Below, one piece after another: positions 1-59,583 of a stretch of 64,000 bases of DNA. Within the stretch, counting starts at the first letter, position 1. Every line of letters starts with the position of its first letter. Location: positions 682,001 to 746,000 of the forward strand of contig CDLV01000005.1 in the NCBI GenBank assembly GCA_001244265.2, in the 5' to 3' direction. The position numbers were made by a program, and so were the translations under genes. The notes under the pieces are model-generated. The model did no database searches, had not been told where the DNA came from, and saw nothing but the letters and a program-made list of their open reading frames with translations. Origin of the DNA: Microbotryum violaceum. Taxonomy: Eukaryota.

Positions 1-2308
1 CCAACCGCGAGACGCTGCGCCTGGGCGGCCTGATCGACTGTTGCGGTGATGATAATGACTTGAACGGACGGAGCTGGCGAAACGCCTGCGGATCCCGAAA
101 GCGAATGTAGCAGCTGCAAGGCCGGGATGACGTAGCATTGGATGCGCTCTTGAATTGCCGGGGCCTGCGCCACGATGTCTTGACTGCGAAGCACACAGGG
201 AATCGCTTTGGCCTGAATTTTGGTCGGCGGTCCGAGGCTGGAGCACGAAAAGACCGGGGGCGATCAGCAATCCAGCGCACAATGTTCTGTTCCTTTCTCA
301 ACAGCGAGGCTTACCCATACTTGGCAATCGCTCGGAACAACTCGTTCCCAACGCCGAGAGCATCCCATTTGCTCCCCAGGCTACCGGGCGGTGGAGCATT
401 TCCATTCGAACTGCCGAGCATAGGACTCTGCCCACCAATCACGGGCGAGTCCCATTCACCAAAGTCACTTCCAGGTGCCGTGTTGGGTCGGCTGGGTGAT
501 CTCGATCCAACAAAGGACTTGCTCAAGGACGAGGTGCGGTTCAACCCTGATTGTGGAGCACCGTTGGCGCCTAGGGGTCTCATGAGCGGTGATCGCCCGA
601 CGCCAGTGGAAGTGTTCGACAACGATACACCGAGGCCCGTCGGTCCTGCCTGATGTCCACCTCGATTGATGACCGGGGATCCGATTCCACCGGGACCGAG
701 CATCGGGGAGCCTTGAGGAGCAGCAGCCGAGTTCATGAGGTGTGCAACCGACGAAGCCAAGGCGCTGACCTGCTGTGACAGAGCGGCGATTTGCTCGTCC
801 TTGTCCGCCATTCCATCCTGTTCGGAAGAGCCGAACTTCCCCGACGAAGAGAGAGCAGGCGATGAAGCCGCTGGCGCAAAGTTTCCACCAAGGCCTTCGA
901 GAATCGAGCCCGACGCCGAACGAACGAGACCGGGTCGTGAGCCCGGCGCGGGCTGTAGAGGAGGGGAGGGTGATCGCACGGTCAAGAGTGGCGATTCAAA
1001 CAGGTCTTTGGTTCTCGAAAGCCCAAGATGTTGACCTGGACCCCCAGCTCGAGGGAGCGAGTTCATGTAGAGGCCCGAGTTGCCGCCACTGCCGGCCGAG
1101 TTGGCCAGCTGTTGCACGAAGGTTCGAAGGGAGTTGATCTCGTCTCGCATAGATCGCATCTCGCCGTGAACGAACGAGGCCAAATCGTAGACGGTGGCCT
1201 CGAGCGAGTGTACGCGCGCCTCGACGGTCTGTTGTTGCTCGTCCCCACCGCCACCGAACAGGGGTCTGCGACGCACGCCCGGTGAAGGGCTTCGCACGGG
1301 TGTTGGGGCTCGAGGCGTCGCATCAACTGCACCCGGCGCGATGAGCGACGTACTCGACGTTGAAGGCGAGCTGCCCAGCACGATGGACGGGTTGGAAAAG
1401 TCGAGGTCAAAGCTCAGTTTGTCATGAGCCGGCGAGGCCAGCGGGGACGAGTTGGAGCGTTCGGACGCCGAACGGTTACGATCATCGGTTCTCGAAGGTA
1501 GCACACCGAGTATGAACGACGAAGGTCGGCTCTTGGGTGCACTTCCAACCGCTCCTGAACTCGAACCTGGCCGCAACGAAAGTGACGCGTCGCCGTCAGA
1601 AGGTGAAGGCGTGAGTGCCCGACTGCCTGAACCGAGACCTTGCAGGGGCGAAGTTGCGCCTGAGGAGCGGTTGATGTCGAAAACGCCTGCGAGACCGTTG
1701 ATGGCGTCTACCATCCTCTTTTCGGGGGTGGCGATGGTGGCACTGACGAGTCGACGACGATCACCGATCGCTCCGACGCTCGATGAAAGTGCACCCGAAT
1801 GGTTGGGTCCTGACCCAGCGGCGGTCGAACGGCCCGAACCAATTGGTGTCGGTCTTGATAGACCCGACGAGGAAGGAGCGGCGTCCCACATTGGTCCGGT
1901 GGCCGAGGAAGCGCTGAAGGCGGACGACGTGGGGGTGACGGACGGGTCGCGCTGCGGTGAGGAAGTGCGTGGCAGCGAATCGATGGAAGGGCCCAAGGAG
2001 TCTATAAGCGAGTGATTGTAGTCCATCGCGGGGTAGTAGGGACGTACGCCTTGGTCAAAGTGGCCGCTGCCGTTCGTATTCGCGCCGTGGTGGAATTGGT
2101 TTACGGGAGAGGAGCTAAGCGAGTCGAGGCGCGACGAGGAAGAGGGCGAGGACGACGCCGAAGACGACGCCAGCAGGGACAAGTCGCCAAAGAGCCCATT
2201 GCTGCTGCCGTTGCGGTTGTGAGTGGAGGAGCCCAGAGCGTGGTCGAAGCTGGTCGACGATGCGGCGGTGCGAGTCGAAGGGACAAAGCTCGCAGCGGTG
2301 GGTAGCAT
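1..2308 (-). CDS. eIF4A-like DEAD-box helicase-fold protein with ~650-aa low-complexity N-terminus and degenerate Walker A; 3' end runs off the window
   Basis: ATG at 2308 (MLPTAASF). Intron 314-238 (GTAAG...GCTGAT...CAG). The spliced product reads KWDALGVGNELFRAIAKYG-LGPPTKIQAKAIPCVLRSQDIVAQAPAIQERIQCYVIPALQ...VQVIIITATVDQAAQ, i.e. Q-motif, motif I and motif Ia positions of eIF4A/Fal1-type helicases. Confidence 0.75.
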
Positions 2309-2315
2309 GCCTGCC

Positions 2316-2346
2316 GGTGGTGGTGGTGGTGGTGGTGGTGGTGGAG
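2316..2346. repeat. (GGT)n microsatellite just upstream of the ATG at 2308
   Basis: About 9-10 consecutive GGT units read directly. Confidence 0.9.
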
Positions 2347-3011
2347 AGGACCGCTCCTTAGCGAGTGAGGTGCATCGACGGTGGGGGAGGAATGTAGCGC
2401 CGGGGTTTAGGGATGCGGGAAGAGGCTTGGCTGCTGGCAGAGAAACGGCAAACGGCAAACGTGAAACGTGAAACGTGAAACGTGCACCCCGGAAAGGACA
2501 AAGGTGGACGAGGGCGCAAACGCAAAAGAGCGCAGGCAAACAGGAGAGGAGAGAGCAATGGCACGAGAGGAGGCCCGTCAACTCAGCGCGGTGTGTGACA
2601 GTGTGGTTCTGCGTGGTTCGGCCCCAGTCAGGCAACTAGTGCAGCCGACGCGACCGAACCCGATGAGGATGGACGTACGAGGTGATGGGCGCGGATGCCC
2701 TTTTGATACAAGCCCAGGTAGAGTGTACACGGGACCAGGACCACAAGAGGCGATCGAGCTGGGAGCAGGTTCGCGCCAGACGTCACGCGTACGGCGCGAC
2801 AGAATGGAACGGGCACGGGCCATTATCAATCGGCGAATGGCGAATTACACCCTGTTCTAATACCGGCGCTGGCGCTGGCGCATTAGTAGTACCCCCGAAA
2901 GGCGCGCAGGGAACAGTGTTTCCTAAGAATCCGGATGAGCACCAGCCTCATCGCTCCTTCGCACATCTTGTGGATCCCGCCCCAAACACCTTCGTAGCCC
3001 TTACTCCCACC

Positions 3012-3830
3012 ATGGCCTCGCTCTCGAATCGGATACGCACAGCACTAACGACACGACCGAGTCATGCATCAACATCCCAACTCGTGATCCCCGTGCATCC
3101 GTCACAACAGCGACTTTTCTCCTCGAGTCGACCCTGCCTGTCCTCAACCCCTCTCAGTTATCCCTTTGCATCAGCTGTTCAAGTCTTACCGCCATCACCA
3201 CCCCCAACGCACCCCAAGACATCCCTCTTGCGCACGTTGAACCTACACCTCACGTCGCAACACCCCTTGGCGACCGAATACACCGCGCTCTTCTCCCGGC
3301 GCCATCCAACCCGGGTCAAGTCCGGCTCCGTCCTGACCGTCATCTCCTACACCGCCTTACCCACCACCGCGAACCCGCAGCCCTCAACAACGACCTTCAG
3401 TGGTGTCCTGATGGCGATGAGGCGACGACACGCCGGGAGGGATACGTCGATCCGTCTGCGCAACTTGGTCGGTCGTACCGGCGTCGAACAGAGCTTCAAG
3501 GTGTTTTCCCCCATGGTCAAAGAAATCAGGATCGTACAACGCGCGACCAACAGTGTCGCCGCGACGGGATCGGGCAAGAAGAGCGGCGATAGGAGGAAGC
3601 CTGTGCTGAAGGCGAGCAGGAGGGCTAAGATGTACTTTGTCAGGGAACAACCCGATCGGTGCGTCTTACCCACGAGTTCAGCGCTGGCCAAGTATGCTAT
3701 GGTAGAGCTGACACTTTGGCAACTTTCTGCCACTGTTTTTTGTTTTGTTTTCAACAGACTGGTCGGGGTTAGTGGTATCGTCAAGCAGGCGAGGGAGCGG
3801 GAGGCGGCTTTGGAGAAGAGGAAGAGGTAG
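3012..3830 (+). CDS. MRPL19: Mitochondrial ribosomal protein bL19 (Img1-like)
   Basis: Arg/Ser-rich presequence (RLFSSSRP), then VKSGSVLTV...FSGVLMAMRRR...TSIRLRNLVGRTGVEQSFKVFSPMVKEI...RRAKMYFVRE, the L19 pattern. Intron ~3659-3757. Confidence 0.85.
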   Translation: MASLSNRIRTALTTRPSHASTSQLVIPVHPSQQRLFSSSRPCLSSTPLSYPFASAVQVLPPSPPPTHPKTSLLRTLNLHLTSQHPLATEYTALFSRRHPTRVKSGSVLTVISYTALPTTANPQPSTTTFSGVLMAMRRRHAGRDTSIRLRNLVGRTGVEQSFKVFSPMVKEIRIVQRATNSVAATGSGKKSGDRRKPVLKASRRAKMYFVREQPDRCVLPTSSALAKYAMVELTLWQLSATVFCFVFNRLVGVSGIVKQAREREAALEKRKR

Positions 3831-4442
3831 TTGCGGCTGCCGCATCGATTGTAACGAGATCATGTTCCTCTGTACACCTCTCTTTGGTTCTATGAGAAAT
3901 CAACCTATCGGAAAGGATCTTGAACAAGTGCGCACAAGATGCCGATCCCGCATGACTCGGGGGTTACAGGGGAAAATCCAGATCTTTATTAGGAGCACCT
4001 GAAACGGCGAAGGCTGTGTCGATCTGGTAGAAGTGTGATGTTGTTTGATGGCCCTAGCCCCTGCGTCGAATACGGCCCGTGCTCGTGTCAGATGATCCGA
4101 GGGTGCGTGCGCAATGGATAAAATGCGCTCACTGTATTTGATCGGTATAACGGGCGTTCTTACATGGAAATCTCGACCCGTGGAAGTTCCGCGTTTCTGT
4201 TGACATAGCTCATGCGAGGAAAGGAACCGCCGTCACGGTCGACTTCTGCGACCCCGCGTGGTGGACAGTAAGTATCACGTGCCCCGTTTGATCGACGCTC
4301 GACGCGTCGGCTCTCGAGCCACCTCGCGCGCCACGCCTCTCTCGTGCCGTCCGCCTCCTCGCTCCCGACCGGTTCGAACCGCCTACGCCGGTGATAAGCC
4401 ACCGCAACTCTCTTCCGCCCCCCGATTGGTGGTGGTACCCCC

Positions 4443-7400
4443 AAGTACAAACTGGACGGGCTGTGGAAGAAGACCAAGAAGGCCGCGGCGCGTGGATCGA
4501 CGGCGACGACCGCGACCGCGAGCACGACCAGCAGCAGCGGCGCCAGCCTTGACCCCTTGTCGTCGTCGGCGTCGTTGTCGTCCCAGTCGTCGGCGTCGTG
4601 GTCATCGTCGATCCATTCGCCTTCGCTGTCGATCCAAACCGTAGATCTGGTCGCTCATCAACAGTACTATGCCAAGCAGTCTTCGCTCGACTCGCCCCGC
4701 TCTGCGACGACACACTTCGATAGCTTGCCAACCTCATCACCACACTCGAACCGAAACCACGACAACGACGATCAGGACACGTGCATACACCCCTCTCAGT
4801 ACCCGTTCAATCGAGCAACCAGCAACATCTCCTCGTCGGGCAAACAAGATCGTGATCGCTTGACTGCGGCCCTCAACAATCTAGGCACCGTCTCGAGCAG
4901 TAGTGAATCGACGTCGACGCTCATGGCAAGGCAGACCTCGTCCAGCTCGTCGTCGACGTCGACCGCGGCCTCGTCCTCAGGGGGGCCATATTACTCGTCG
5001 CGACCAACGGCGTTATCCCTTCCTGTCAACCTCATATCCCAGGTCGTACCCGCTACTTCATTCTCCCGGAATTCCAAGGGCGCGGCCAAGTCCACGTCAC
5101 AGTCTTACTCGCCGCCCAGGGATGGCTACGACGACCAGTCGATCCGATCCATCGGAGTCGTCGGCAAGCAAAGGGTCGACTCGCTACCCGCGTCCGACCC
5201 CGCGTCCGATCCCGCGTCCTCGTCCGACTATGATCGCCACTCATCCGTAGCCGAAGACTCGCATGGGTCTTCCTTCGAGAGGGAACGCGAAACTCAACAT
5301 TCGTCAACCAAAGCTTCATTGTCGTCCTCAGGTGCCAACAAACTTGCTGGCGCGTCGCGCTTCTCGACAACATCTTCGAACACGGGCTATCGAGGTCAAG
5401 CAATTCGGCCAACGGCTTCGATGGTGTCGACCTTTTCCAATTCGACGGGAAGTCACTCATCCTACGCTCCTTCGTTGGCTTCGACCAGTCGATCAGGTGT
5501 CAAGGGCGAACATGCCGTTTCGGTCGCTTCCTCCCTGGCGGCTTTGCCTTCGCCGACGAACAAACCCCCCCGGAGGGCATCGGCCTTTTCGACGCTCTCT
5601 CGAGGCTCCGTATCGCTGAACCAAGGCTATACCGGCCCGTCACCTTACTCATCCGAGTTCGAACTCCAGCGACCTTCGTCCCCTTCCGAAATCGACGAAC
5701 TCTTTGAAGGACTCTTACCCCGCGTCGCGACGACCTCGAAAGCGCAAGCCGATCTTAGGGCTCTCGATGTAGACAAAAAGTGGATCATGCTCAAAAGTGA
5801 CGCGTATAGGAATTGGAAGAATGCGAGGGAAAAGATCACGAAAAGACAAGTCGACGCGAGGAGTCTGTCGAGCACGGCCTCGTCAAATGGGAATCCCATT
5901 TCGGGGACCTTGACGGACGTTTCAGGTGGGGGGGCGGCGGCGGCGAATGGGGGAGCGCAGAATGGCGGCACGAGAACTGTCAAGGCTTGGGGGAAGAACG
6001 AAAGCCCTGAGGCATACATTGCCAAGTTCATGGACGGCTCGATTGAGCAGAGTCAGGTGGCGAGTTTGAGTGTTTGTTTGCGGACCTATGAACTGAGGTG
6101 CGCCACTTCCTGTTGGGCCGAATGTCGAGTGCATGTGCTAACTCAAGCACACTATTGGTCTCTGCAGCTGGTTGCAACAGTTCATTGCTCTAAAAGGCCA
6201 AGCCGTACTTGGTAACGCGTTACACATGCTCAATCGACCGGATCCGACGCGCAAGCCCAACCCAGCAATGGAAGCCGAGCTCATCAAATGCCTACGAACG
6301 CTCTTCAACCATACCGACGGCGCCCGCGACGCGATCGACAACAACTCCTCCATCTCACCCATCACCGCTTCCTTGGCCTCCGAAATCCCGACTCGGAAAG
6401 CGGTTATTGAGCTCTTGACCTTTTTCATCATTCGTGATCGGAATCGGGGTTGGAACCTCGTTTTGAAGGGCCTGAACGACTTTTCGACATCGAGGAGATT
6501 ACCGGGCCGGTTTGACGCGTGGTTCTACTTTTGGGAAGCTGCGATCGATGGACGAGGTCGATTCGGAAGTTCGGTCGGGGCGAGTGAAGCTGTTTTGAGT
6601 TTGAGAAGTGGTGGGGCAAAGGAGATGCAGAAAGGTTTGGCGGCCAATGGATATAGGGAGTTGAATAGTGCGGGTCTGGATATCAAGGATTCGGGGCTGA
6701 GTGAATTTGCGGTCAGTTGCCTATCGGGTTATGCAGATTTGGCAATGGAGAGGTACTGACTTGGCTCGACTGGAATCGTGCAGATCTCGAATATGCTGCT
6801 TATGAAGGAGTTGTTGCACGACCGCGACCTAAAAGTTCGGCTGCACCTCCGCGCCGAGATGGAAACCTCGGGCCTTAAACGGATCCTCGACAAGCACCGC
6901 GTCTTGGACCATGCAAACCTTCACCGCCTCATCATCAACCACTACGAGGACGCGCACAACGATGAGCTCGAACTCGCCGATTTGATGAAGGAGGAAGTGC
7001 GCATGAACTTTTCGGACCCCAGGGGATGCTTCGACGCGATCATGGAGAATACCGAAGAACGGGCGTTGGACTTCTGGCATTCAACGCTCAAGCATGTTTT
7101 GCTCATCCCCTCTGAACCAGAGCTGCGCCTGCGGTACTTTCAGCTCATCGATCGACTCGTCGCCAGCGTCGTCACGGACCAGAAGGGGTTGGACGGTGAT
7201 TTCTCGGCCCTGTTGGGCTCGAGCGTCGCTTCGATGGTGGCCCATTTTGGCAGTCAGGAGAAGCTCACGGATGCACTCGACGATCTGGCGGACGCTCAAG
7301 CTACGATCGAGAAGATGAAGCGCGATCGCGAGGAGCTGCAATCGGAGATTGACCAAGGTGCCCAAGGCGCAGTCGGGGAACTCAAGACCCGCATCGCGAC

Positions 7401-10400
7401 GCTCGAACGTGCTCTGGCTACTTCCCGAGCGGCGACGGATTCGACCAAGACCGAAGGCGCGATCAAGGAACGTGATTACCAGGGGCAGATTGCTGGATTG
7501 CGCTTGGACAACCGGGTCATGTTTGAACGATTGCAAAGGGCGGGCTTGATTGAGAATCTTGCGGATGAGCTCAAGGACAGGATGGAGAAGCAGATACAGA
7601 GGAGTAAGACGGTGCAGATCCTCGAAGGGAGTAAAGGGGATAGTTCACCGGAGAGTCAGAAGAGACCGATCAGCCGGCCGGGACCGACCGTGCTTGGCTC
7701 GACGATGGCTAGGAGGCGGCATGAGACGATTTCCGCGGCACCTGTGAGTTATATTTCGTTATTGGTCGAGGATGCTGTGCTGTAGCTGAATGCCGTGGAG
7801 TCTCTTGACCCTGCTCAGATCGTCGAGGATTGGTCCCGGACTTTCAGCACCTTCCCGTCCATGTCTCCACTTGTGGTCGGAGCCTCACCTGCCTCACGGC
7901 CGAACCCGGCGCTCCCATTGAACATTCCCGAGACGGATTCGACACCACAAGCGTCGGGCCGGTCACTCGTCTCACCCGCACTGACGCCCGAGAGCACCCC
8001 GACCAAGAAACTCGCTTCAGTACTGCGAGCCTTGCCCATCTCACGCGATGCCCACTTGCCAGCACCGACACTCGCCGAGCAATTGCGGCAGGTCCACCAC
8101 CAGATGTCCCCGTCTCGAGGCGGTGACCTGACCGATTCGGAGTATTCCGACTCGGTACCGGGGACACGCTCGGCCACACCGAGATCAAGCATGGCTTTAT
8201 CCGAGTCCGACAATGAGGTTGTCAAGTCGCCAACCCGAGCAAGCCGGGTCGAAGGTGTTGCTCTACTTACCACATTTGATCCAGATGCCACGATCAGGGT
8301 CGAAGAACTCGAGGACGAGGAAGAGGAGGAAGGAGAAATGGAAGTGCTCGCTCGCCAATCTTTGGCATCGCCTTCGAAGCGTGCCGGCATTCCGTCCATC
8401 TCCTCTTCGACGAGCAAGGGCTACGATTTCCTCCCAGCGCTCGCGTTCGATAGTGATACAGGATCGGCGGAGGACCACGACTCGTTCCGCTTTGCTTTCG
8501 AAACGGCACCTTCGACCCCGCTCATCCCCGCGACGAGCTCACCCATTCCAGGTCAAAGTCTGCGCACGCCACCGACGCGAATCGCTGCTGGAATTTTCGC
8601 GTCCGAATCCCCACTACTCGAGTCGCCCACGCCAGCAGCCCCAAGAACTCTCAAGGAACCGACGAGTACGCCTACCGTCGTTCTTTCAGATTTGTTCCAG
8701 CCTGTACCACCTTCCGCTCCGCAAGCAAAGTCTTCGCCATCGAAGTCTGCTTCGACTTCGCCCCACCCTCCAACCCCCCCTCCTCCGCCTCCACCACCTC
8801 CGCCACCTCCGCCACCACCACCGCCCCCTCCACCACCACCACCGTCTTCCGCAGTCGCCGGTGGAACAGGCACTATACCACCACCGCCGCCGCCGCCTCC
8901 AGCACCTCCAGCACCGCCAGCCCCAAAAGTTCGCTTCGGCGTCAAGACCGGCGCGCCCGCGACACTGAGCGAGGTCCTCGCCGCCAAATCGGGCCTCAAA
9001 AAAGGAGGATCCGACACCGGCTCGAGTCCACGGTCTGTCGCCGCAGGTTTGCCGCCCGCTCCTACTCCGCCCGCTCCTCCACCACCTCCAGGTACACCTC
9101 GCGCTTCTCCAGCAGCTGGCGCATCCCGTGCACCCATGGCACCCGGTGCTGCCGCAACCACTCGAGTCGGGGGCCTTCCCGGCGTCGATCCACCGCAACG
9201 CAAGCTCAAGACGTTCCAATGGGACAAGGTACCCGCGAACTCGATCACCTCGACGGTATGGGACAAGATGAACCTTGATGTTGTGTCCCTTGCTGCCAAG
9301 CTCAAGTCTGAGGGTATCTTCCATGAGATCGAGGACGATTTCCGGGCCAAGCAGATGGTTCGGGATGTGACGAAGCGCGAGAAGAGGGATTTAATGACGG
9401 TGCTGCAGCCTCAACAGAGGCAACGAATCTGTACGTGCCCTCACCGTTTTGTCTACCTCAGACTACGACGGAGCTGATGATGTCGACTCTTTTCGTTCTG
9501 CAGACATCTCCTTGCTCAAGCCAGCTGCTCCAGGGGAAGATCCCTGGCCGTCAATCAAGACTGCTGCGCTCCGTATCCTTCGCTACGATGACGATCTCAA
9601 AGAAGGGATGTTGAGCGAGTTTCAGGCCCTGTTCCCCAACGCAGAGCAAGAAGCTTCACTCATCCCACACAAGACGACGCCACCACTCGAGCTCGACATG
9701 CTCGACCCGGCCGATCGCTTCCTCATCGAATGCCTCAAGATGCATCGTATCAAGGGCAGGGTCAAGGCGATGATTTATCGCGAGCAGTTCCTGGAAACGA
9801 TAGCCAAGCATGAGGAAGAGGCGTTGCGCGTGTATGAAGCGGCCAAGATGCTCTTGAACGCTCCTCGTTTCTTTGATTTACTAGAGGTCAGACTCGCCCT
9901 ATCTCACTATGACTGACTTCGTCTTACCGGGTCACTCACGCTTCATTCTTTGTCCCGCAGCTCATCCGCATCCTCGGTAACCATCTTAACGGCGGGGGCC
10001 ACAAGGGTGGAGCGCACGGCTTCCGCATCTCGTCCATCAACAAGCTCGTTGACACGAAAGGACAATCGACGGAGCGAACGCTTCTGCATCAGGTCGCAAA
10101 GACAGTCGCGCGCGTTGTCCCGTCGACCGAGGCCTTCCTGGAGGAACTGGCCAAGCCTGCCGACGCTTACAAGAGTGAGTCAAGTTCTGATCTGATCTGA
10201 CCTTCACCTTCGATCAGAACACTGCACTAAGGCACCTCCTCCTCTCAGCCGATCTGTCAAGTGTCCGCACCGCCCTCGCCAAGTTCCACCAAGACCAAGC
10301 TGCGCTCGTCGAGCTTCTCAAAGACTTTGAGGATGTCTCCGACCTCGACAAGGACGACGGATTCCCGAAGAAAATGTTCCGCTTCTCTCGCGATGCCGGC

Positions 10401-42608: not shown

Positions 42609-44571
42609 ATGGCGACTCATGTGAGTATCAGTCTTCCGTCACACAAAGATGGCTCTCGATCGTCGCCCGTCCTGCCCCCGCTAACGCGTTTCTTTCGCAT
42701 CCCCGCTCCCCTGAATGCGGCTGCCCCTACCCGTACCCTACCCCTGCCTCGATCGCACCGCCCTTACCTCTCCTCCTTCCCAACAGGTGCTGTTCGAGTC
42801 AGCCACAGGGCTCGCGCTCTTCTCGTCCTCGTTCGTCGAAGAGGTCGGCAAATCCGCCAAGAATGTGCAGGCCTCGATCGACGAGCTGAGCAAGTTTGGC
42901 AAGATGGTCAAACTCGTCTCGTTCGTGCCGTTCCAGGACGCCGCACATGCGTTGGAGGTCGCGAATGATGTTTCAGAAGGTGCGTTCTTCTGCTGCGTTC
43001 GGTTGCAGAGAACGCCTTGCTGCTGTCTCACGGGGGCCAAATGGCAGGGTCATCTCACCTCCGCTTCCGACTGGCGAGGACTATGCCCTTTCGGACATCC
43101 TACGCTACGTCACATACTGACCCGAAACTCCTCGCGTTTTCTATCAGGTGTCGTCCATGAATTTCTGCAGGGCCTGCTCGAGCTCAATCTCGGTAAAAAG
43201 TCCGGCGTCGTTTTGGGCGTCGAGGAACGCGGCCTCGCTTCGTCCATCAAATCCATCCTCGGCATCGACTGCGACACCTCGGACCGATCGCTCGAACTGA
43301 TCCGTGGTGTCCGTCTCCACTCTGAAAAACTCCTCGCCGGCCTCGAACATGGCGATATGAGTCGTTCGCAACTCGGTCTCGGGCACGCCTACTCGCGCGC
43401 CAAGGTAAAGTTCAACGTCAACCGATCCGACAACATGATCATCCAGGCCATCGCTTTGCTCGACCAACTCGACAAGGACGTCAACTTGTTCGCGATGCGT
43501 GTGCGCGAATGGTACGGGTGGCACTTCCCTGAATTGGTCAAGATCGTCCCCGACAACTACCAGTACGCCAAGGTCATCAGCTTCATCGGCGACAAGACCA
43601 CTCTCTCGGACGACTCCATCGAAGGCTTGACCGAACTCTTGGAGAACAACGACATCCTTGCTCGTAACGTCGTCGATGCCGCCCGTGCGTCCATGGGTAC
43701 CGACATCTCCCCGATTGACCACCTCAACATCAAGAACTTTGCCTCTCGCGTCATCCACCTCTTCGAATACCGCAAATCGCTCCAAGCCTACCTCTCCGAA
43801 AAGATGGGCGTCGTCGCTCCCAACTTGGCCAGCCTGATCGGTGACACCGTAGGAGCTCGCTTGATCTCGCACGCCGGTTCGTTGACCAACTTGTCCAAAT
43901 ACCCCGCCTCGACGGTGCAAATTCTCGGTGCCGAAAAGGCTTTGTTCCGCGCGCTCAAGACCAAAGGCAACACACCCAAATACGGTCTCATCTATCACTC
44001 GACCTTCATCGGTCGTGCGGGAACCAAGAACAAGGGTCGCATCTCGCGTTTCCTCGCCAACAAGTGTTCGATCGCTTCCCGAATCGATTGCTTCTCCGAT
44101 GCACCTTCGACCAAGTTCGGCGAGGTCTTGAGGGGTCAGGTCGAGGAACGTTTGGCTTTTTACGAGTCGGGCGTGAACCCTACCAAGAATGCGGACGCGA
44201 TGAGGAAGGCTTTGGACCTCGTCAAGGCTGAGAATGCGGGCAAGGACGTCGAGGAAGTCGCTTTGCCCGGGATGGAGGTCGATGAAGATGAGGCCGAGAA
44301 ACCGAAAAAGAAGAAGGCCAAGAAGCGCAAGGCTGCTGGAGACGATGAAGAGGAACCGAGCAAGAAGGTCAAGGCTGGGGAGGTGATTGAGGATGATGGA
44401 GAGGCGGCAAAGAAGGAGGCGAAGCGGTTGAAGAAGCTTGCCAAGGCTGCGCAAAAGGCCGCGGAGGAGCTTGAGGCCGTTGCGGAGGACAAGTCAGAGA
44501 AGAAGGACAAGTCGGAGAAGAAGGAAAAGTCGGAGAAGAAGGAGAAGAAGGAGAAGAAGGCCAAGGCATAA
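42609..44571 (+). CDS. NOP56: Box C/D snoRNP protein Nop56
   Basis: MATH|VLFESATG; LGLGHAYSRAKVKFNVNRSDNMIIQAI; YPASTVQILGAEKALFRALKTKGNTPKYG; KKE/KKD tail. Introns 42621-42786 and 42980-43147. Confidence 0.95.
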
Positions 44572-52467: not shown

Positions 52468-53955
52468 TTAAACTGCTGGCATGAGTTCATCTTGACCCGC
52501 GGCGACTCGATCGACCCTCCCTTGCAACAGGGCCTGCACGGCCTTGCGCCTCATTCTCGTCGCAAAGTTGCCATTGAGATCACTCGGGGGTCCACGTGGT
52601 TGTCGACTTGCCGAAGCCGTCCCAGGAACGGCAGCGGGACGATTCGATCGGTATCCCCCCGAGAAAGGTGACGATGGCACTTGCGGCGATGAGCCGTTGA
52701 AGGAGGGCGACGAGGGTGTGTACGAAACGGGCGAAGGGGGAACGAAAGCCGCGGCAAAGGGGGAAAGACTCGGGGCGACGCTCACGACTTGGACCGAAGC
52801 GTCTTGTAATTCGACGGTCGAGGTAGGTGTCGAGGTGACGCGTTGACGACGACCCTTGAGAACCGACTCGAGTTTGCTGAGATGGGATGCTCGGGGTGGC
52901 GACGCGCCCGCCCCGCCTGAGCCGGGTCGGTCGAGGACGAGCTCAAAAACCTCGGGGTCGGACAACGTATTCAGTCCCTCCGCCGGAAGAGTGGGTACCT
53001 GTTCGAGTCGAGCTTTGATGGAGGGGCGTTGTTTGAAAGGCATCTCGGCCGTAGTCGGGCTCCCAGCGCGACTGCTCCCACCTTCCGAGCCCGAGGTATC
53101 GGGGAAAGGTTCTCCCGGTCGACTGAGGATAAACGCAGGTGGGTCGATAGGCATCGGTGGGGTCCGAATCAGAGAAGAAGCCGTTGACGAGGAGTTCATC
53201 GAAGACGATCGGCCATGTCGTTCCCACGTCGAGCTCGAATCGGTCGAGGGCGAGATCGAGGGGTCGGCATCGGTCGTCGATGAAGGTGGTGCCGCGACCC
53301 GAGAGGTTTGCTCCGATGAGACTGCTGCTTCAAGGTTGACGCTTTGCCGCTTGCGTCGAGCGAGCGCCGAGGCGACGAGAGGGTTGCTCATTGCGTTGAT
53401 CTCGTCGATCGCCGAAGGACCGGTGGTGTCGGACCTGGCGGACGGGGCCCGTTCAAGTGCAACGGCTTCTTTCGGGCTGACGATGCCAAAGCCGTTGAGC
53501 TGAGTCGTCCTCGGACGCGTCGCCTGAAACGTCTGAACCTGCGTGGCGCCAGAACCAAAGCTGTTGGGGTGTTGGGCGAGCTGACCAAGGGTCATGGCTT
53601 GGAACGCGGCTTCAGCCTCGTGACGCTGCGCGGCGAGGGCTTGCTGGTTCAGGAGCAAGAGCTGGCTTTGGTGCTGCAGTTGGGCTTGCAACTGGGCGAG
53701 GTACTGCGACTCGGGGGTATAGGCGATGGAGACATGTTGCTGTGGTGAACGCGGTGGCATCATGTTCATTTGGTTGTGGAAGACGTGGACATCCGACATG
53801 CGTGGTGAACGGGCCGAAGAGGGGTCACCACTGGCTGCAGAGAAGGTCCCTGCGGGTGCTGAGCCAGGGGCCGACCGATGTCGAACGCGCTGCTGCTGCT
53901 GTTGCTGACGTAGCTGTAGTTGCTGCATTTGCTGCTGCATTTGGTACACGTCCAT
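52468..53955 (-). CDS. Hypothetical Q/S/P-rich disordered protein
   Basis: 495-aa single-exon ORF preceded by a 5'UTR intron (54032-53966, GTGAGT...TGCAG). C-terminal RQPRGPP...NFATRMRRKA. Confidence 0.75.
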   Translation of the reverse strand: MDVYQMQQQMQQLQLRQQQQQQRVRHRSAPGSAPAGTFSAASGDPSSARSPRMSDVHVFHNQMNMMPPRSPQQHVSIAYTPESQYLAQLQAQLQHQSQLLLLNQQALAAQRHEAEAAFQAMTLGQLAQHPNSFGSGATQVQTFQATRPRTTQLNGFGIVSPKEAVALERAPSARSDTTGPSAIDEINAMSNPLVASALARRKRQSVNLEAAVSSEQTSRVAAPPSSTTDADPSISPSTDSSSTWERHGRSSSMNSSSTASSLIRTPPMPIDPPAFILSRPGEPFPDTSGSEGGSSRAGSPTTAEMPFKQRPSIKARLEQVPTLPAEGLNTLSDPEVFELVLDRPGSGGAGASPPRASHLSKLESVLKGRRQRVTSTPTSTVELQDASVQVVSVAPSLSPFAAAFVPPSPVSYTPSSPSFNGSSPQVPSSPFSGGYRSNRPAAVPGTASASRQPRGPPSDLNGNFATRMRRKAVQALLQGRVDRVAAGQDELMPAV

Positions 53956-55287
53956 GACGGTTTACTGCAGGCAAGGGAATAAGAGACATGAGCTCTACGT
54001 CGTGCTCCGCCATCTGGGACGTGGTGACTCACATTGCCTATAGACCGGTAATCGATGTCGCAGATATCGCAGAGTAGGACAAAAGCGGCACGAACGACGA
54101 CAGCGACGTTGGAAAGGATATGTTGATGCTGCGAGCCTATGATATGCAGTAACTCGTCGACCAGCGAACGAGCCCGGCGAGCGTGCAGCCAGTCGAGCTA
54201 ACTGAGCTGGAGCTTGAAGGCGGGCGCAGTGGACGACGAACGGGCGGGGGGACGGCGAAAGCAACGGCGGCGACGACAGGTCAACGCTAAGGCCAAGGGA
54301 CGAGCGGCGGCGCGGCGCGAGGCAACGGCGAAGAGGCGATCGGGGCACGTCCAGCGGCCTTTCATGTACGACACTATGTTAGGATGGGCTACTCCGTCCG
54401 CGATACGGCGCAGACCTGTACCTGAAACCTGCTCAGCCGACAAGAAGGGAGTGGCGACACAGGAGAGTCGCAGACAGAGAGGAGCGCCAGCGCCAGCTGC
54501 AAAGCGTATGCGCCTAAAAAGGCGTGTCGCGCACTGTCGCGCAAGTGCCGTCGCGTCGTTGTGATTCGCTGGCCATCGCGCGCGCGCGACCTCAATCAAG
54601 CGTGTCTCACCAGCATGTGGCACGGGTCCCCGTCTCTCAAGTCAGGGGTCATGTAAGATAAGCACCTTTCTATGCCAGGATACATGGGCCGTTCTTGACG
54701 GCTAGCTTAGATAGTTCGTAGTTAGAATTCGAGATGTCTAGCTCAGAGGCTGATCATAGCGCTCTTCTATACATGTGACGCATCCTGTAAGGTATGCGCC
54801 TCTGATGTGCATAAATTACAATCTGTCGTTCTTGACCACTAGACTAGAAGCAAGTCGTAACTGGAACTCGGCAGTTCTAGCTACTCAGAGGCTACTTATA
54901 GGGCTGTTCTGTAAGGCATCCCCTTACACGTCCCCCGGCGGCGGCCCTTCACTCTACTAGTACACCGCCGGCGCTTTCGCGACTCGGAGACAAGCCCAGG
55001 ATGATGCCACAGCGAAGCCAAGGTGTAACTTCTTCTTTCTATTGATAGACTAGGTTCGGCGGCGCGCTCCGCGCGCCACCTCACAGACATCGATGTTGAT
55101 GCGGTAGAGGCAGGGTTCGGCGAAGAACTGTGTGGGACCGGACCGGAACGCTCTCGCTCGAGCCGTCATCGTTGCTGGCCTTCAGACCTCCGAAACGTCG
55201 TGCAACTATCAGTATTCTTGCTGTTTCCCCCCAGAAGTCAGCATTCCATCAAGCAAGCGTCGACGATTTGTGCAGGCGATGACTTGG

Positions 55288-56246
55288 GAATAATGGGAAG
55301 GGATCTTGAGAAAACTTGTCCCTTGATGTTATAGTCCAACCGGTCAGTCAGTCATGCTGCCCTGCGCTTTGCTTTTGAAAGGTTGGCACACACCTGCCAA
55401 CACGACGGTTACTCCATCGAACTGAGCCGGGCCCCGATTCTCAACCGCACGAAGTCAAGCACCACCTCAACTTCTCCCCAGAAGTCAGAATTCCATGAAG
55501 CAAGCGTCGACGATTTATGCTGGCGATGACTTGGAATAACAGGAAGGCATTGCTTCGGATCCCCTGTGATGTTACAGTCCAACCGGTCAGTTAATCATGC
55601 TGTCCTGCGCTTTGCTTTTGAAAGATTGGCACATACTTGCCAACGGGATGGTCACCCCACCGAACTGAGCCGTGGAATAACGGGAAGGCATTGCTTCGGA
55701 ACCCCTGTGATGTTGCAGTCCAACCGATCATTAGTCATGCTGCCCTGCGCTTTGCTTTTGAAAGATTGGCACACACCTGCAAACACGACGGGCACTCCAC
55801 ACTCCACCGAACCGCGCCGTTGAGGATGACGGGAAGGCATTGTTTCGGATTCCCTGGGATTTTACAGTCCACCCGGTCAGTTAGTCATGCTACCCTGCGC
55901 TTTGCTTTTGAAAGATGGGCACATACCTGCCAACGGGATGGTCACCCCACCGAATCGAGCCGTGGAATAACGGGAAGGCATTGCTTCGGAACCCCTGTGA
56001 TGTTACCGGTCAGTTAGTCATGCTGCCCTGCGTTTTGCTTTTGAAAGATTGGCACACACCTGCCAACACGCCGGTCACGCCACCAAACCGAGCCGTTGAG
56101 GATGACGGGAAGGCATTGCTTCGGATCCCCTGTGATGTTACAGTCCAACCGGTCAGTTAGTCATGCTACCCTGCGTTTTGCTTTTGAAAGATTGGCACAT
56201 ACCTGTCAACACGACGGTCACTCCACCAAACCGAGCCGTTGAGGAT
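55288..56246 (-). repeat. Tandem array of six ~135-150-bp units, each an exon plus a spliceosomal-type intron on the minus strand
   Basis: Units share CTGCG(C/T)TTTGCTTTTGAAAG, and five of six begin with GGAAGGCATTG. The reverse complement gives GT(A/G)TGT...GACTAAC-like branch...CAG introns. Confidence 0.9.
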
Positions 56247-57530
56247 CTGCCACGGGACGATGAGCCGGAATTCACGGACCTGTTTTTCTGGCGTGATTCG
56301 TTACAACTATCAGTATTCTCGCTGTTGTCCATCTGTAGCAATGGCAGTGAAGACTCACATTTAGTGTCCCATGAACCCGGATTCTCAACCGTACGAAGTC
56401 AACCCTTCCGCTGTTTCACTGACGTTCAATGTCTGTTTTTCGTATCAGTTTGTCCGTCATATCTAAGACTGCACAGCCATGTCAAGGAATAACTCACGCA
56501 TGCAGTGTCACCAGCCGCCTGTGAAGAAACAACTCGAGGGTTGACATTCAAAGAGGACGTTTGAAGGAATTGCTGCTTGGAAGTTTTCCATTAGCTTCTG
56601 AACAATCCCACTCCAAGAGCACACTTCATGAAGTTACTTACTCGGATTCGTAGCTATGTTGCATGCGGCGGGCATTTCTTGATCCCGTAATCGTTGCAGA
56701 GCCTCCACAACGACCGCTTCGGATGTCGCAAGCTCGAGGTGGCGATGGGATGAGATGCGATGGGCAAGGTGTGAAGAGCAGTAGGGAGAAAGACGGAGGA
56801 GCCTGCGTCTCAGCTTAAACCGGGCTCATAGAATGTCGCGGAACGCCGTGGAGTGAAGCCCCGTGACACGCTGGCGGGCCCCTAACGGCGGAATTGGCGC
56901 ACTGGCCGACGCTACCCGAGGTCTGGAACCGCTTCAAGTGGACGAACGAATGTCAGGCTTGGAGGTAAAGAACTGCGGGCCCGTTGCACTTGCCGTGCGA
57001 CACTGAGGCTGCCTGCTGCCGGTGCAGGTTGAATTGACGAACCAGTTTGCGCGACGTCGTGTTGATCCGTTTCGCGCTGTTGCTTCTCGCGAAGGCGTTG
57101 TTGCCGCTGAGCTTCGGCGATTGTTCGAGGTTGCTGGCGGCGACGTCTGTGCGATTAGAGCGGGAGTCGGGAGGAGTCGGATTGCGCGGAGGAGGAGCAA
57201 CGCGAGCAGCTGCCGACGTCTCTGATGCCCTGCTGCTCTCCGTGAAGATTGTTGTACAGGAGACGGGATGTGAAAGCTTGCAGATGACTCTTCGGCAGTA
57301 GCAGAACTGGATGGTTGAAGGGACTACACTACGACGTGGCAAGCACGCAAAACAGGTCGTCTGGGAAGCAGTCATGTGCCAGGCCGCATTCACTCCAGGC
57401 CGCAAGGATGGGAAATGGAACCTCGGCGAAGGTAGTCGATGCTGAAACAGCGCTAGCTAACTGGGACGCGCTGGACCGAGAGCTGCCTATGACGTCACGC
57501 CACGTGGCTTGTCTCGTTCTAGACTGTTCT

Positions 57531-57655
57531 TTGTCTCGACGACGTTTTTTATTCTTTAAATTCTTTAAGTTTTAAGGATTGTCTCGACGACTTTTTTTAT
57601 TCTTTAAGTTTTAAAAATTCTTTAAGTTTTAAGGATTCTTCAAGTTTTAAGGATT
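57531..57655. repeat. AT-rich compound repeat (TTGTCTCGACGAC x2; TTCTTTAAGTTTTAA x4)
   Basis: Read directly; strongly AT-rich compared with its surroundings. Confidence 0.85.
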
Positions 57656-58007
57656 TCATTATAGCGTAATTGTTAGGGGCCGCTCAAGTACGACAGATTG
57701 TAATTATGCAAACCAGGCGCATACCTTAACTTACACTGCGGTCAGGCCAGTCGGGGGTCTCACCGACAGCTCCGTATGCACAAGCAAGACAGTACATCTC
57801 CCTTTATTTCTCTATGATCATTACACACGAGTCACATACCATTGCACCGCCGCAAAGAGACTTAGTCTAGCCACACTCAGCTCTCTTGGACCACAGCTGA
57901 GCACGATGATCTGTGCTGACTCAGCTAAAGATGAGGCTGGCGCACACGATCGACAGTGACATACAGTGATAAAGAGACTGTATAACAGGGCAAGTAAATT
58001 TTGACGA

Positions 58008-59583
58008 CTACGATCTCCTACTCTTGCCCAACCTCTTTGCACCGCCCTTGCTAGCCCCACCTCGACCCCCACCACGTCCACCACGTCCTCCACCTCGGCC
58101 TCCTCGCCCACCCCTCGGCCCCCTCTCGCCTCCATCACCATCGGCCTTGAAGTTGTTCTCCTTGGGTCGTCGCGAGCTGGTCGGGTTCCCGAACTTGTTA
58201 TCGCGGCCTCGTCGCGAGATCTTGCCTCCTCGGCCACCACGCCCACCTCGTTCGGACTCTACGACCTTGCGCTTTTTGGATGGGCCGGCGATGGCGTCCT
58301 CGAGGGCGATGTCGAAATCTTCGGTCGAAGCGAAGCCTTCCCCACCCTTGCGCCCTGTAGAGTCAAACGGAACAGGGTCAATGAAAGCTTTGCGGATTTC
58401 GAAAACCGAGAGCAAAACAGCTGACTCTTCTTGAGGCTGTCCAATCGTTTGCCGACCTCCTTCTTCTCCTTCTCCCTCTCCTTGAGCCTCTCGACTTGAA
58501 CCTTCTTGCCAAACTTCTTGGCATCGCGTAACTTGCGCGCATCCTCGGACGCCTTCATGCCCGCTTGTTCGTCGAGCAGCTTTTGACGCAGGTTCGCCAT
58601 GTGTGCGTCTGTCTTGATCATCTCGGCAAAGTAGTCCGCGGGGCGAAAAAAGGGAAGAGAGGCTTTATTGAAGCGCTTCTCGGCTTCCTGGGCGGCCCAA
58701 AGAGCTTGCTTGTAGCTGCGATTTGAATGGGAGAATGGGAGAATGGGACAAGGATGAGCGAACGGATGTAATCCGCGAGTGATAGACTCGTCGAACCAAG
58801 ACTCACAAGGCCAGTTCCCGTTCGAGATCGTTGTCAGCGTCGATCTCGGCAGATGACTTCGGGTTCGCAAGGGCCAAGGTGTCAAAGAAGGTCGTCGGCA
58901 GCTTAATGCTGGCCAGAATACGCTCGAGTGCGGCCTGAGAAGAAGCGAGCAGATACGGGTGAGCCAACGAAAGCACGGATCGGTCAGGGATAGGAGAGCA
59001 GGCTTGCATCGTTCCTGAGTGTTTCGCGCTCGACAGGGACGAGATCGGCATCATCGCCGACCTCTTCGTCATCGAGGTCTTCGTAGAGCCTTTCCTCGCC
59101 CTCGTCACTGTCTTCCTCGTCCTCTTCGTCGTCGTCGTCCTCGTCTTCGTCATCTTCCTCCCCCTCGATGGATTCGTCTCCCTCTTCCTCCTCATCGTCC
59201 TCGTCTCTTTCGACATCTAAACCCAGTTCAGCCGGGTCGACATCACCCAAAAGTTCCATCATCTTGTTCCATCCTTCTTCGGTGATATCATCCTCTTCCT
59301 GCTCGCTGTCATCTTCATTATCCTCGTCGTCGCTCTCGTCCTCGTCATCCTCCGAATCGAAAGCCAGAGCTGCATCCTCCTCGTCCTCGTCCTCGGTATC
59401 CTCATCCCCCTTATCACTTTCACTGTCCTCCTCATCACTTATGATCGGCTTCGGAGCCTTTGGGACCGGGCCCTTTTTCGAGGTGGTCGATTGGGACTTG
59501 TCCCCGTTCACTTTCGCGGCGGCGAGGGCGCGTCGTTGCAATCCCTGCGCGAGCATTTTCTTTTGCGTCGACTTGGACGACAT
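58008..59583 (-). CDS. EBP2: rRNA-processing protein Ebp2
   Basis: Acidic N-terminus; DNDLERELAFYKQAL; FFRPADYFAEMIKTDAHM; RDAKKFGKKVQVE; RDNKFG; KRLGKSRR. Confidence 0.95.

Follow-up and report, generated by a model that had tools for sequence, protein, structure and literature searches.

Canonical Helitrons begin with 5'-TC and end with 3'-CTRR, carry a 16–20-nt hairpin about 12 nt upstream of that end, and insert at an A/T target without target-site duplication (PMC4289320). In Pleurotus ostreatus, RepHel genes have introns that are seen by RNA-seq (PMC4289320). In Microbotryum lychnidis-dioicae, a genome of 55.4% GC, Helitrons account for about 10% of the transposon space, with 373 copies (PMC4469406). 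Helitrons have also been reported to expand in non-recombining regions (PMC10502011). Here, we analyze a 64,000-nt stretch of Microbotryum violaceum DNA (contig CDLV01000005.1, positions 682,001 to 746,000; hereafter the window), in which an apparently non-coding gene with nine introns in 1.3 kb is very probably one copy of a multi-copy, non-autonomous and decayed Helitron, with a helicase remnant that has undergone tandem duplications spanning one intron. All coordinates are positions of the window, and the element, its tandem array and its introns are all on the minus strand.

55050..57408, minus strand: whole element, a probable non-autonomous degenerate Helitron copy of about 2.36 kb (candidate length 2359 bp), with a firm 3' end and a candidate 5' end.

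The closest described relative is the non-autonomous HELPO1.3 subfamily of P. ostreatus, which also lives in a basidiomycete and likewise ends in CT[A/T]G behind a subterminal hairpin; each is a transcribed, shortened derivative that would depend on RepHel-encoding family members (PMC4289320). The element described here differs in that its interior is no captured gene but its own rearranged helicase, with one helicase intron present six-fold, and in that its 5' end is a candidate. Maize Helitrons are alike in that Helitron-borne sequence is transcribed and spliced into non-canonical, mostly non-functional RNAs (PMC4528327), but their exons are captured fragments of host genes, in contrast to the own helicase and the tandem copies of one intron found here.

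The interior of the element contains a tandem array. Tandem Repeats Finder reported a period of 143 nt (5.0 copies, 83% matches) over 55536-56246 and a higher-order period of 290 nt (2.5 copies, 88% matches), and a repeat search found a 99-nt core present in six copies. With up to 3 mismatches allowed, a 42-nt intron core has six matches in the window, all within the array, and none in 100 shuffles. The layout is that of a 290-nt dimer, in which GTATGT and GTGTGT donors alternate, as do two types of exon. The array and the nine introns, from 5' to 3' for the introns, are as follows.

55322..56272, minus strand: tandem array of six units of 133-149 nt, each a helicase exon piece plus an intron, seen from the repeat anatomy.
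56573..56641, minus strand: upstream intron 1, 69 nt, predicted from its GT..AG ends, with a CTAAT branch point; none among the joints listed.
56433..56497, minus strand: upstream intron 2, 65 nt; exact joint with CT..AC ends in run X1 (4 contigs).
56288..56358, minus strand: upstream intron 3, 71 nt, predicted from its GT..AG ends; none among the joints listed.
56130..56202, minus strand: repeated intron copy 1, 73 nt; exact joint in X1 (8 contigs) and X19 (2).
55995..56059, minus strand: repeated intron copy 2, 65 nt, read from sequence and shortened by 8 nt between branch point and acceptor; none among the joints listed.
55854..55926, minus strand: repeated intron copy 3, 73 nt, read from sequence; none among the joints listed.
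55705..55776, minus strand: repeated intron copy 4, 72 nt; exact joint in X1 (1 contig) and X19 (1).
55564..55636, minus strand: repeated intron copy 5, 73 nt; joint within 1 nt in X1 (2 contigs) and X19 (1).
55322..55393, minus strand: repeated intron copy 6, 72 nt, with an AAG acceptor; joint within 1 nt in X1 (1 contig).

All nine predicted introns have GT..AG ends, branch points of the CTAAC, CTAAT or CTGAC type, and lengths in the range of short fungal introns, and the intervening exons measure, from 5' to 3', 75, 74, 85, 70, 68, 77, 68 and 170 nt. An earlier reading made from the letters of the window (the sequence-only reading) had given the same nine coordinates, lengths and ends, as well as the exon lengths of 70, 68, 77 and 68 nt. 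It had described six near-identical introns in tandem exon-plus-intron units with three unrelated introns upstream, which the repeat searches and a mean pairwise intron identity of 0.88 bear out (flanking exon pieces, 0.71). Its proposal that the introns multiplied by tandem duplication agrees with the 143-nt period and with exon flanks that are copied in register. It was also right that indels spare the splice signals: none of the three falls in a signal. The 8-nt deletion of copy 2 sits between its branch point and acceptor, a deletion of 1 nt adjoins a branch point, and a 7-nt duplication (55793-55807, Tandem Repeats Finder) lies in the exon preceding intron copy 4.

In the classical tandem-duplication model of intron gain, a duplicated exonic AGGT makes a new intron from what was formerly exon. 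In contrast, an existing intron was here copied together with its flanks, as in internal exon-intron duplication. Intron gain by tandem genomic duplication in potato RdRp (PMC4974935) and in Drosophila (PMC2891723) is alike in that duplication raises the number of introns.

The exons of the array originate from a Helitron-type helicase. The contiguous 50-residue translation of the 170-nt exon (P0122) matched 9 proteins among 30 candidates at E <= 0.01, 8 from Microbotryum silenes-dioicae and 1 from M. saponariae. Of these, 7 exceed the curated cut-off of PF05970 (PIF1-like helicase) and 2 match it more weakly; the best score among the relatives is E 2.8e-80. When the related protein P0128 was compared with solved structures, the sole match was Helraiser, the reconstructed Helitron transposase of bat (PDB 7lcc, chain 7lcc_A; E 2.2e-14). 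Family proteins align to its residues 1059-1206, a stretch that includes GG..vl..gd..QCL..v, with ...GGltvvlavnpkQCLpvv... of P0128 standing over ...GGkvllLggdfrQCLsiv.... The GG..QCL block of this alignment is usually called helicase motif III. Unlike Helraiser, the window copy has the block as interrupted, frame-shifted fragments and is without a Rep domain. Searching the window with the nine proteins (tblastn) placed SSTARFGGVT..L at 5 positions and DPKQCLPVI at 5 positions along the array, and two further remnants were identified.

55412..55561, minus strand: helicase remnant in the 170-nt exon, DPKQCLPVI... followed by a frame-shifted ...DFWGEVEVVLDFVRLRI, from the P0122 matches.
55247..55300, minus strand: helicase remnant LPIIPKSSPAQIVDACLM, a continuation of the block past the intron, from tblastn with P0126, P0127, P0128 and P0131.

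In P0128, the LPIIPKSSPAQIVDACLM stretch falls within both the PF05970 match (profile 24-184 of 223, E 7e-45) and the Helraiser alignment. The ..DFWGEVEVVLDFVRLRI remnant is placed at about 55480-55436, and tblastn finds an extra copy of it in the exon before upstream intron 3.

Removal of the repeated introns rebuilds the helicase. Without intron copy 1 the translation reads SSTARFGGVTVVLTG|DPKQCLPVI, and without copy 5 it reads YSTAQFGGVTIPLAR|DPKQCLPVI; the predicted splices at copies 2 and 3 give SSTARFGGVTGVLAG|VPKQCLPVI and YSTARFGGVTIPLAG|NPKQCLPVI. The contiguous block FGG..VLAG|xPKQCLPVI is thus restored by splicing at four of the six repeated introns, each a phase-1 intron within a glycine codon. 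At copy 4 the downstream half alone is present, as the upstream half was destroyed by the 7-nt duplication, and at copy 6 the downstream exon is shifted. Unspliced read-through does not rebuild the helicase block. Since splicing restores the conserved block and read-through does not, the repeated intron is the original intron of the helicase gene. The sequence-only reading had considered that the unit might be an internal repeat of a transposon with splice-like words arising by chance; the transposon is there, but the splice words are inherited from the helicase intron.

The 3' end of the element is of the Helitron type.

55050..55080, minus strand: Helitron-type 3' terminus, consisting of a hairpin, a spacer and CTAG at 55053-55050, followed by T at 55049.

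The hairpin has arms at 55080-55071 and 55067-55058 around a GGA loop (55070-55068), with a 7-nt spacer. Its stem holds 7 perfect GC pairs (55077-55071 with 55067-55061), or 10 pairs including one G-T, and the HelSearch rule asks for at least 6 pairs, a loop of 2-4 and a spacer of 5-8 (PMC4289320). Folded as DNA it reaches -13.7 kcal/mol (z -2.40), and 2 of 200 shuffles were as stable. Both strands of the window were scanned for at least 7 perfect stem pairs, a loop of 2-4, a spacer of 5-8 and CTRR followed by T; the site at 55080-55049 was the only one in the 64 kb, against a mean of 0.23 in shuffles. Contigs of two public sequencing runs, X2 (6 contigs) and X18 (5 contigs), diverge at 55049 into mutually unlike, AT-rich flanks (agreement 0.53-0.67), and 55049 therefore marks the boundary of the repeat. 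The T at 55049 is probably common to these diverging DNA contigs, their alignment starting there. In addition, tblastn aligns P0123 and P0128 by their C-termini to 55181-55053 (93-98% identity), with both proteins stopping at the TAG of the terminal CTAG, so helicase-bearing copies in a related species have the same 3' terminus. At the other end, homology to P0001, a predicted M. silenes-dioicae protein, extends to 57405.

A dispersed, multi-copy mobile family is represented in the window by one copy, from 55050 to about 57408. Contigs of four coded public runs align to 54900-57400 at 90-100% identity (X1 4617, X2 535, X18 225 and X19 81). Summed depth in X2 is 2000-10000 in most bins compared with 65-157 for single contigs, a poor measure of copy number that shows only 'many copies'. 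Related predicted proteins lie on contigs of six different lengths in M. silenes-dioicae and on one contig in M. saponariae, and a second copy is absent from the window. Copies also differ internally. In P0124 (M. silenes-dioicae), a run of array-like units leads into sequence that aligns with 56807-56655, upstream of exon 1 of the window copy, and other family copies therefore hold larger-scale internal repeats. A further duplication overlaps the end of the array in the window.

55225..55672, minus strand: second-order 243-nt duplication, 1.8 copies (repeat D4), from Tandem Repeats Finder and the repeat search.

The branch-point region of upstream intron 3 has a second copy at 55203-55225 (repeat D6). 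The 243-nt repeat, repeats D5 and D6, and the mosaic gene models of the relatives show repeated internal rearrangement. In the X2 bin at 55824-55907, summed depth falls to 117 (about one copy) compared with thousands in the neighboring bins, and X18 and X19 are at about 0 there, depth being a weak measure. As a faint hint, the third array unit, which has the 7-nt duplication, may be private to this copy or to a small subfamily; if it is, the array went on changing after the family had spread.

The same four runs (X1, X2, X18 and X19) hold joints that match the predicted splicing. Of 68 joints, the 15 listed are all confined to X1 and/or X19, with 0 of 15 in X2 or X18; X1 and X19 are taken as RNA-like from the joints alone. 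Three introns are excised exactly among the joints listed (upstream intron 2 and repeated copies 1 and 4), with CT..AC on the plus strand, that is GT..AG on the minus strand, and two more joints lie within 1 nt of copies 5 and 6. The 1-nt offset at copy 5 is what is expected for a copy with an exon ending in G, not A. The joints predicted by the sequence-only reading were thus recovered in part, exactly at 3 of 9 introns and within 1 nt at 2 of 9; for the other 4 of 9, upstream introns 1 and 3 and repeated copies 2 and 3, there is none among the joints listed. Within the limits set out below, the predicted sites behave as genuine introns of minus-strand transcripts, and the joints possibly come from relatives. 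A joint from the donor at 56202 to the acceptor at 55322 was present in X1 (2 contigs) and X19 (1) and is compatible with exon skipping, which it leaves unproven. In X19, loose contig ends at 55163 and 55179 show a variant form of the 3' end of the exon before upstream intron 3. This suggests a splice of about 1.18 kb, from the donor at 56358 to an acceptor near 55180, by which the entire array would be left out. Depth dips in mostly-intron bins were seen in X1 and X19 and not in X2 and X18, and were not used, as contig depth cannot rank the parts of a gene.

The spliced product of this copy is non-coding, as had been suggested. Its ATG-led frame has 3 stops in 200 codons (2 internal and the terminal one), and its codon log-likelihood is negative throughout (-0.11 to -0.15 over the three frames), compared with +0.09 to +0.46 in frame for seven Pfam-supported genes of the window. 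The proportion of G and C at third codon positions (GC3) is 0.51-0.59, compared with 0.63-0.74 in Pfam-supported window genes. Each 70-nt exon is a chimera of the duplication: ~28 nt at its start derive from the downstream side of the intron (DPKQCLPVI) and ~42 nt at its end from the upstream side (SSTARFGGVTVVLAG), in different frames. The alternating phases across the copies arise because the two halves of the exon belong to different frames, which also explains the frame, open for ~140 codons, that had been seen to read successive copies in different phases. Seventy exonic nt do not make up whole codons, so a helicase with this duplication could not work, and the duplication either arose in a dead copy or created one. 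A 140-codon open reading frame (ORF) at 57375-56956 was rejected as a conserved gene (codon signal +0.04, with one relative, P0001, mixing several of its frames), and a secreted repeat protein was likewise rejected as a reading.

Taken together, these results fit a simple course of events. The interior of the element is a scrambled remnant of its own RepHel gene, namely of the PIF1-like helicase part. The ancestral helicase gene carried a phase-1 intron in ...FGG.TVVLAG|DPKQCLPVI..., and a 143-bp segment comprising ~42 nt of upstream exon, the 73-nt intron and ~28 nt of downstream exon was duplicated in tandem, perhaps by slippage or unequal exchange. Two unit types probably diverged first, after which duplication of the 290-nt dimer would have led to the six intron copies. 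Each copy inherited a complete donor, branch point and acceptor and so remained spliceable, and each duplication added 70 exonic nt, shifting the frame and making the product non-coding. The element may have been mobilized in trans by a RepHel-encoding family member, and its transcript would have no function of its own.

Several points weigh against this reading. The 5' end is a candidate, with A at 57409 and TC at 57408-57407, and no empty site was seen; the data on the insertion site consist of the A before the candidate 5' end and the T after the 3' end. One X1 contig joins 57371 back to 55090, which fits neither end of the element. This contig goes back 2282 positions with 14 other letters between and no splice-site ends, and it lands 40 nt before the 3' end; it may derive from a circular form or from a family copy that is rearranged or in tandem. 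By itself P0122 matches PF05970 weakly (E 0.036, 14.1 bits, profile 148-183), and the helicase link is carried by its relatives. The Rep (HUH) and Helitron_like_N domains are absent by Pfam from 149 ORFs of the window and from 10 related proteins, an absence that a non-autonomous copy and fragmentary gene models would lead one to expect. As for the runs, their kinds are guesses ('?', 'RNA?', 'DNA?'), with no run recorded as RNA, and those with joints (organisms A and C) differ from those without (B and D), so that the DNA control comes from other organisms. The joints are also unassignable to this copy as opposed to other copies of the family, because the units and the family copies are near-identical, and the copy-number estimate is made from summed contig depth. 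Finally, the best named matches of the window's Nop56 are at 69-74% (other Microbotryomycetes), with none near-identical among the 120 matches listed, compared with 86-98% for transposon-derived peptides against Microbotryum proteins, so that placement in this genus from sequence similarity depends on the transposon-derived peptides. In this last case closer relatives may simply not be among the matches listed.

Of the other explanations, the one that survives best, though improbable, is that the array has been kept or expanded for an RNA function, such as feeding or evading splicing-coupled RNA interference (RNAi), acting as a spliceosome decoy, or serving as a source of small RNA. In its favor, almost all of the element is covered by spliced RNA-like contigs, conservation is somewhat higher in the introns than in the exon pieces (mean identity 0.88 vs 0.71), and core RNAi machinery has been reported in M. 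lychnidis-dioicae (PMC4469406). However, the difference between exon and intron is not significant (27 of 77 exon columns and 19 of 73 intron columns vary among the four fully homologous units, p = 0.29), and the near-identity of a young family requires no selection. The idea that splice-site positions are more conserved among the copies than other positions failed, with 5 of 16 signal columns variable vs 18 of 57 other intron columns (Fisher p = 1.0), and because signal columns vary as much as the rest there is no sign of selection on the splice signals. The changes seen in the signals all remain workable (A/G at donor +3; CTAAC to CTAAT, TTAAC or CTGAC; CAG to AAG). Direct repeats give no double strand, and none of the six introns and four exons folds more stably than shuffles (z +0.32 to +2.22; introns +0.32 to +1.72). 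Rfam gave 7 weak matches at E <= 10 in 53000-59000, all far below gathering scores and none in the array or overlapping 55000-57050. The array of small intronic RNAs offered as an alternative by the sequence-only reading therefore has neither an Rfam family nor a stable fold to speak for it, and a snoRNA host gene or mirtron array was rejected on the same two grounds. One of the seven, a mir-1260b match in the 5' part of the element (57061-57176, plus strand; 25.4 bits, gathering score 81, E 0.12), was taken as chance.

A wider version of this explanation, slightly less probable again, is that the Helitron family carries a tandemly expanding cassette of competent introns, either with an abundant many-intron non-coding RNA that is used by or against splicing-coupled RNAi, or with the cassette acting as a mobile reservoir that supplies host genes with introns and exons upon insertion or partial capture of the element.

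Quite unlikely is the explanation closest to the sequence-only reading, namely a single host locus with a spliced long non-coding RNA or a decaying host gene in which introns multiply by tandem duplication. It accounts for a real array, for sites that look spliced, for a non-coding product and for a 64-kb window without a second copy. It does not account for hundreds to thousands of near-identical contigs that span the whole 2.3 kb in all four runs, for a sharp boundary with a Helitron-type end, or for exons derived from a Helitron-type helicase. The decaying gene is thus retained from that reading but the host locus is not, as the gene is the PIF1-like helicase of a multi-copy Helitron.

Least probable is an introner-like element, in which the 73-nt intron is itself mobile and was inserted repeatedly: six near-identical short introns with consensus signals would suit it, but every copy has the same duplicated exon pieces on either side, head to tail and in register, the intron core is found in the array and nowhere else in the gene-dense window (6 of 6 matches, contrary to the introner-like spread that had been raised), and splicing restores the helicase block, which makes the intron ancestral to the helicase gene. 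Fungal introner-like elements are alike in being many near-identical short introns, but they are dispersed alone in unrelated genes (PMC4457414), whereas the copies here are local, in register and accompanied by exon flanks. An exact-pattern scan of metagenome contigs for the intron core gave 0 matches, and no paper in the collection searched mentions both Microbotryum and introners.

If the locus is a decayed Helitron, the oddity of a non-coding gene with nine introns in 1.3 kb is removed, the gene being a wrecked transposon helicase. It would then offer a clean, datable case in which one intron-spanning tandem duplication multiplies working introns and leaves exons in alternating frames. The locus is also a warning for the annotation of Microbotryum-type genomes: a multi-exon model may have spliced RNA behind it and yet be Helitron debris, and related species already have several such mosaics among their deposited gene models. 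In other respects it is a mobile element in ordinary decay, with a tidy tandem duplication in its interior, and a textbook illustration that touches no long-standing open question, and the family may already be in the transposon consensus libraries of the supplements to PMC4469406 and PMC10502011.

The window around the element is gene-dense and of housekeeping character, with genes for formin, Fcf1, Sec7/BIG, Nop56, subtilase and Ebp2, and its GC content of 0.52-0.61 fits the 55.4% of M. lychnidis-dioicae. The element lies between a gene at 52.5-54 kb and Ebp2. Among its 149 ORFs, Pfam found no RepHel ORF, and it found nothing for the two ORFs inside the element. Nop56 is a single long ORF (42715-44568, plus strand) with NOP5NT and Nop domains. 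Just upstream of the candidate 5' end (in the minus-strand sense), the sequence at 57551-57655 / 57520-57600 is AT-rich and contains an 18-nt tandem repeat (3.2 copies, 92% matches). The motif GTCGTCGAGACAA occurs twice in the AT-rich stretch near 57520-57655, which may belong to the element, to the insertion site or to the 3' region of Ebp2.

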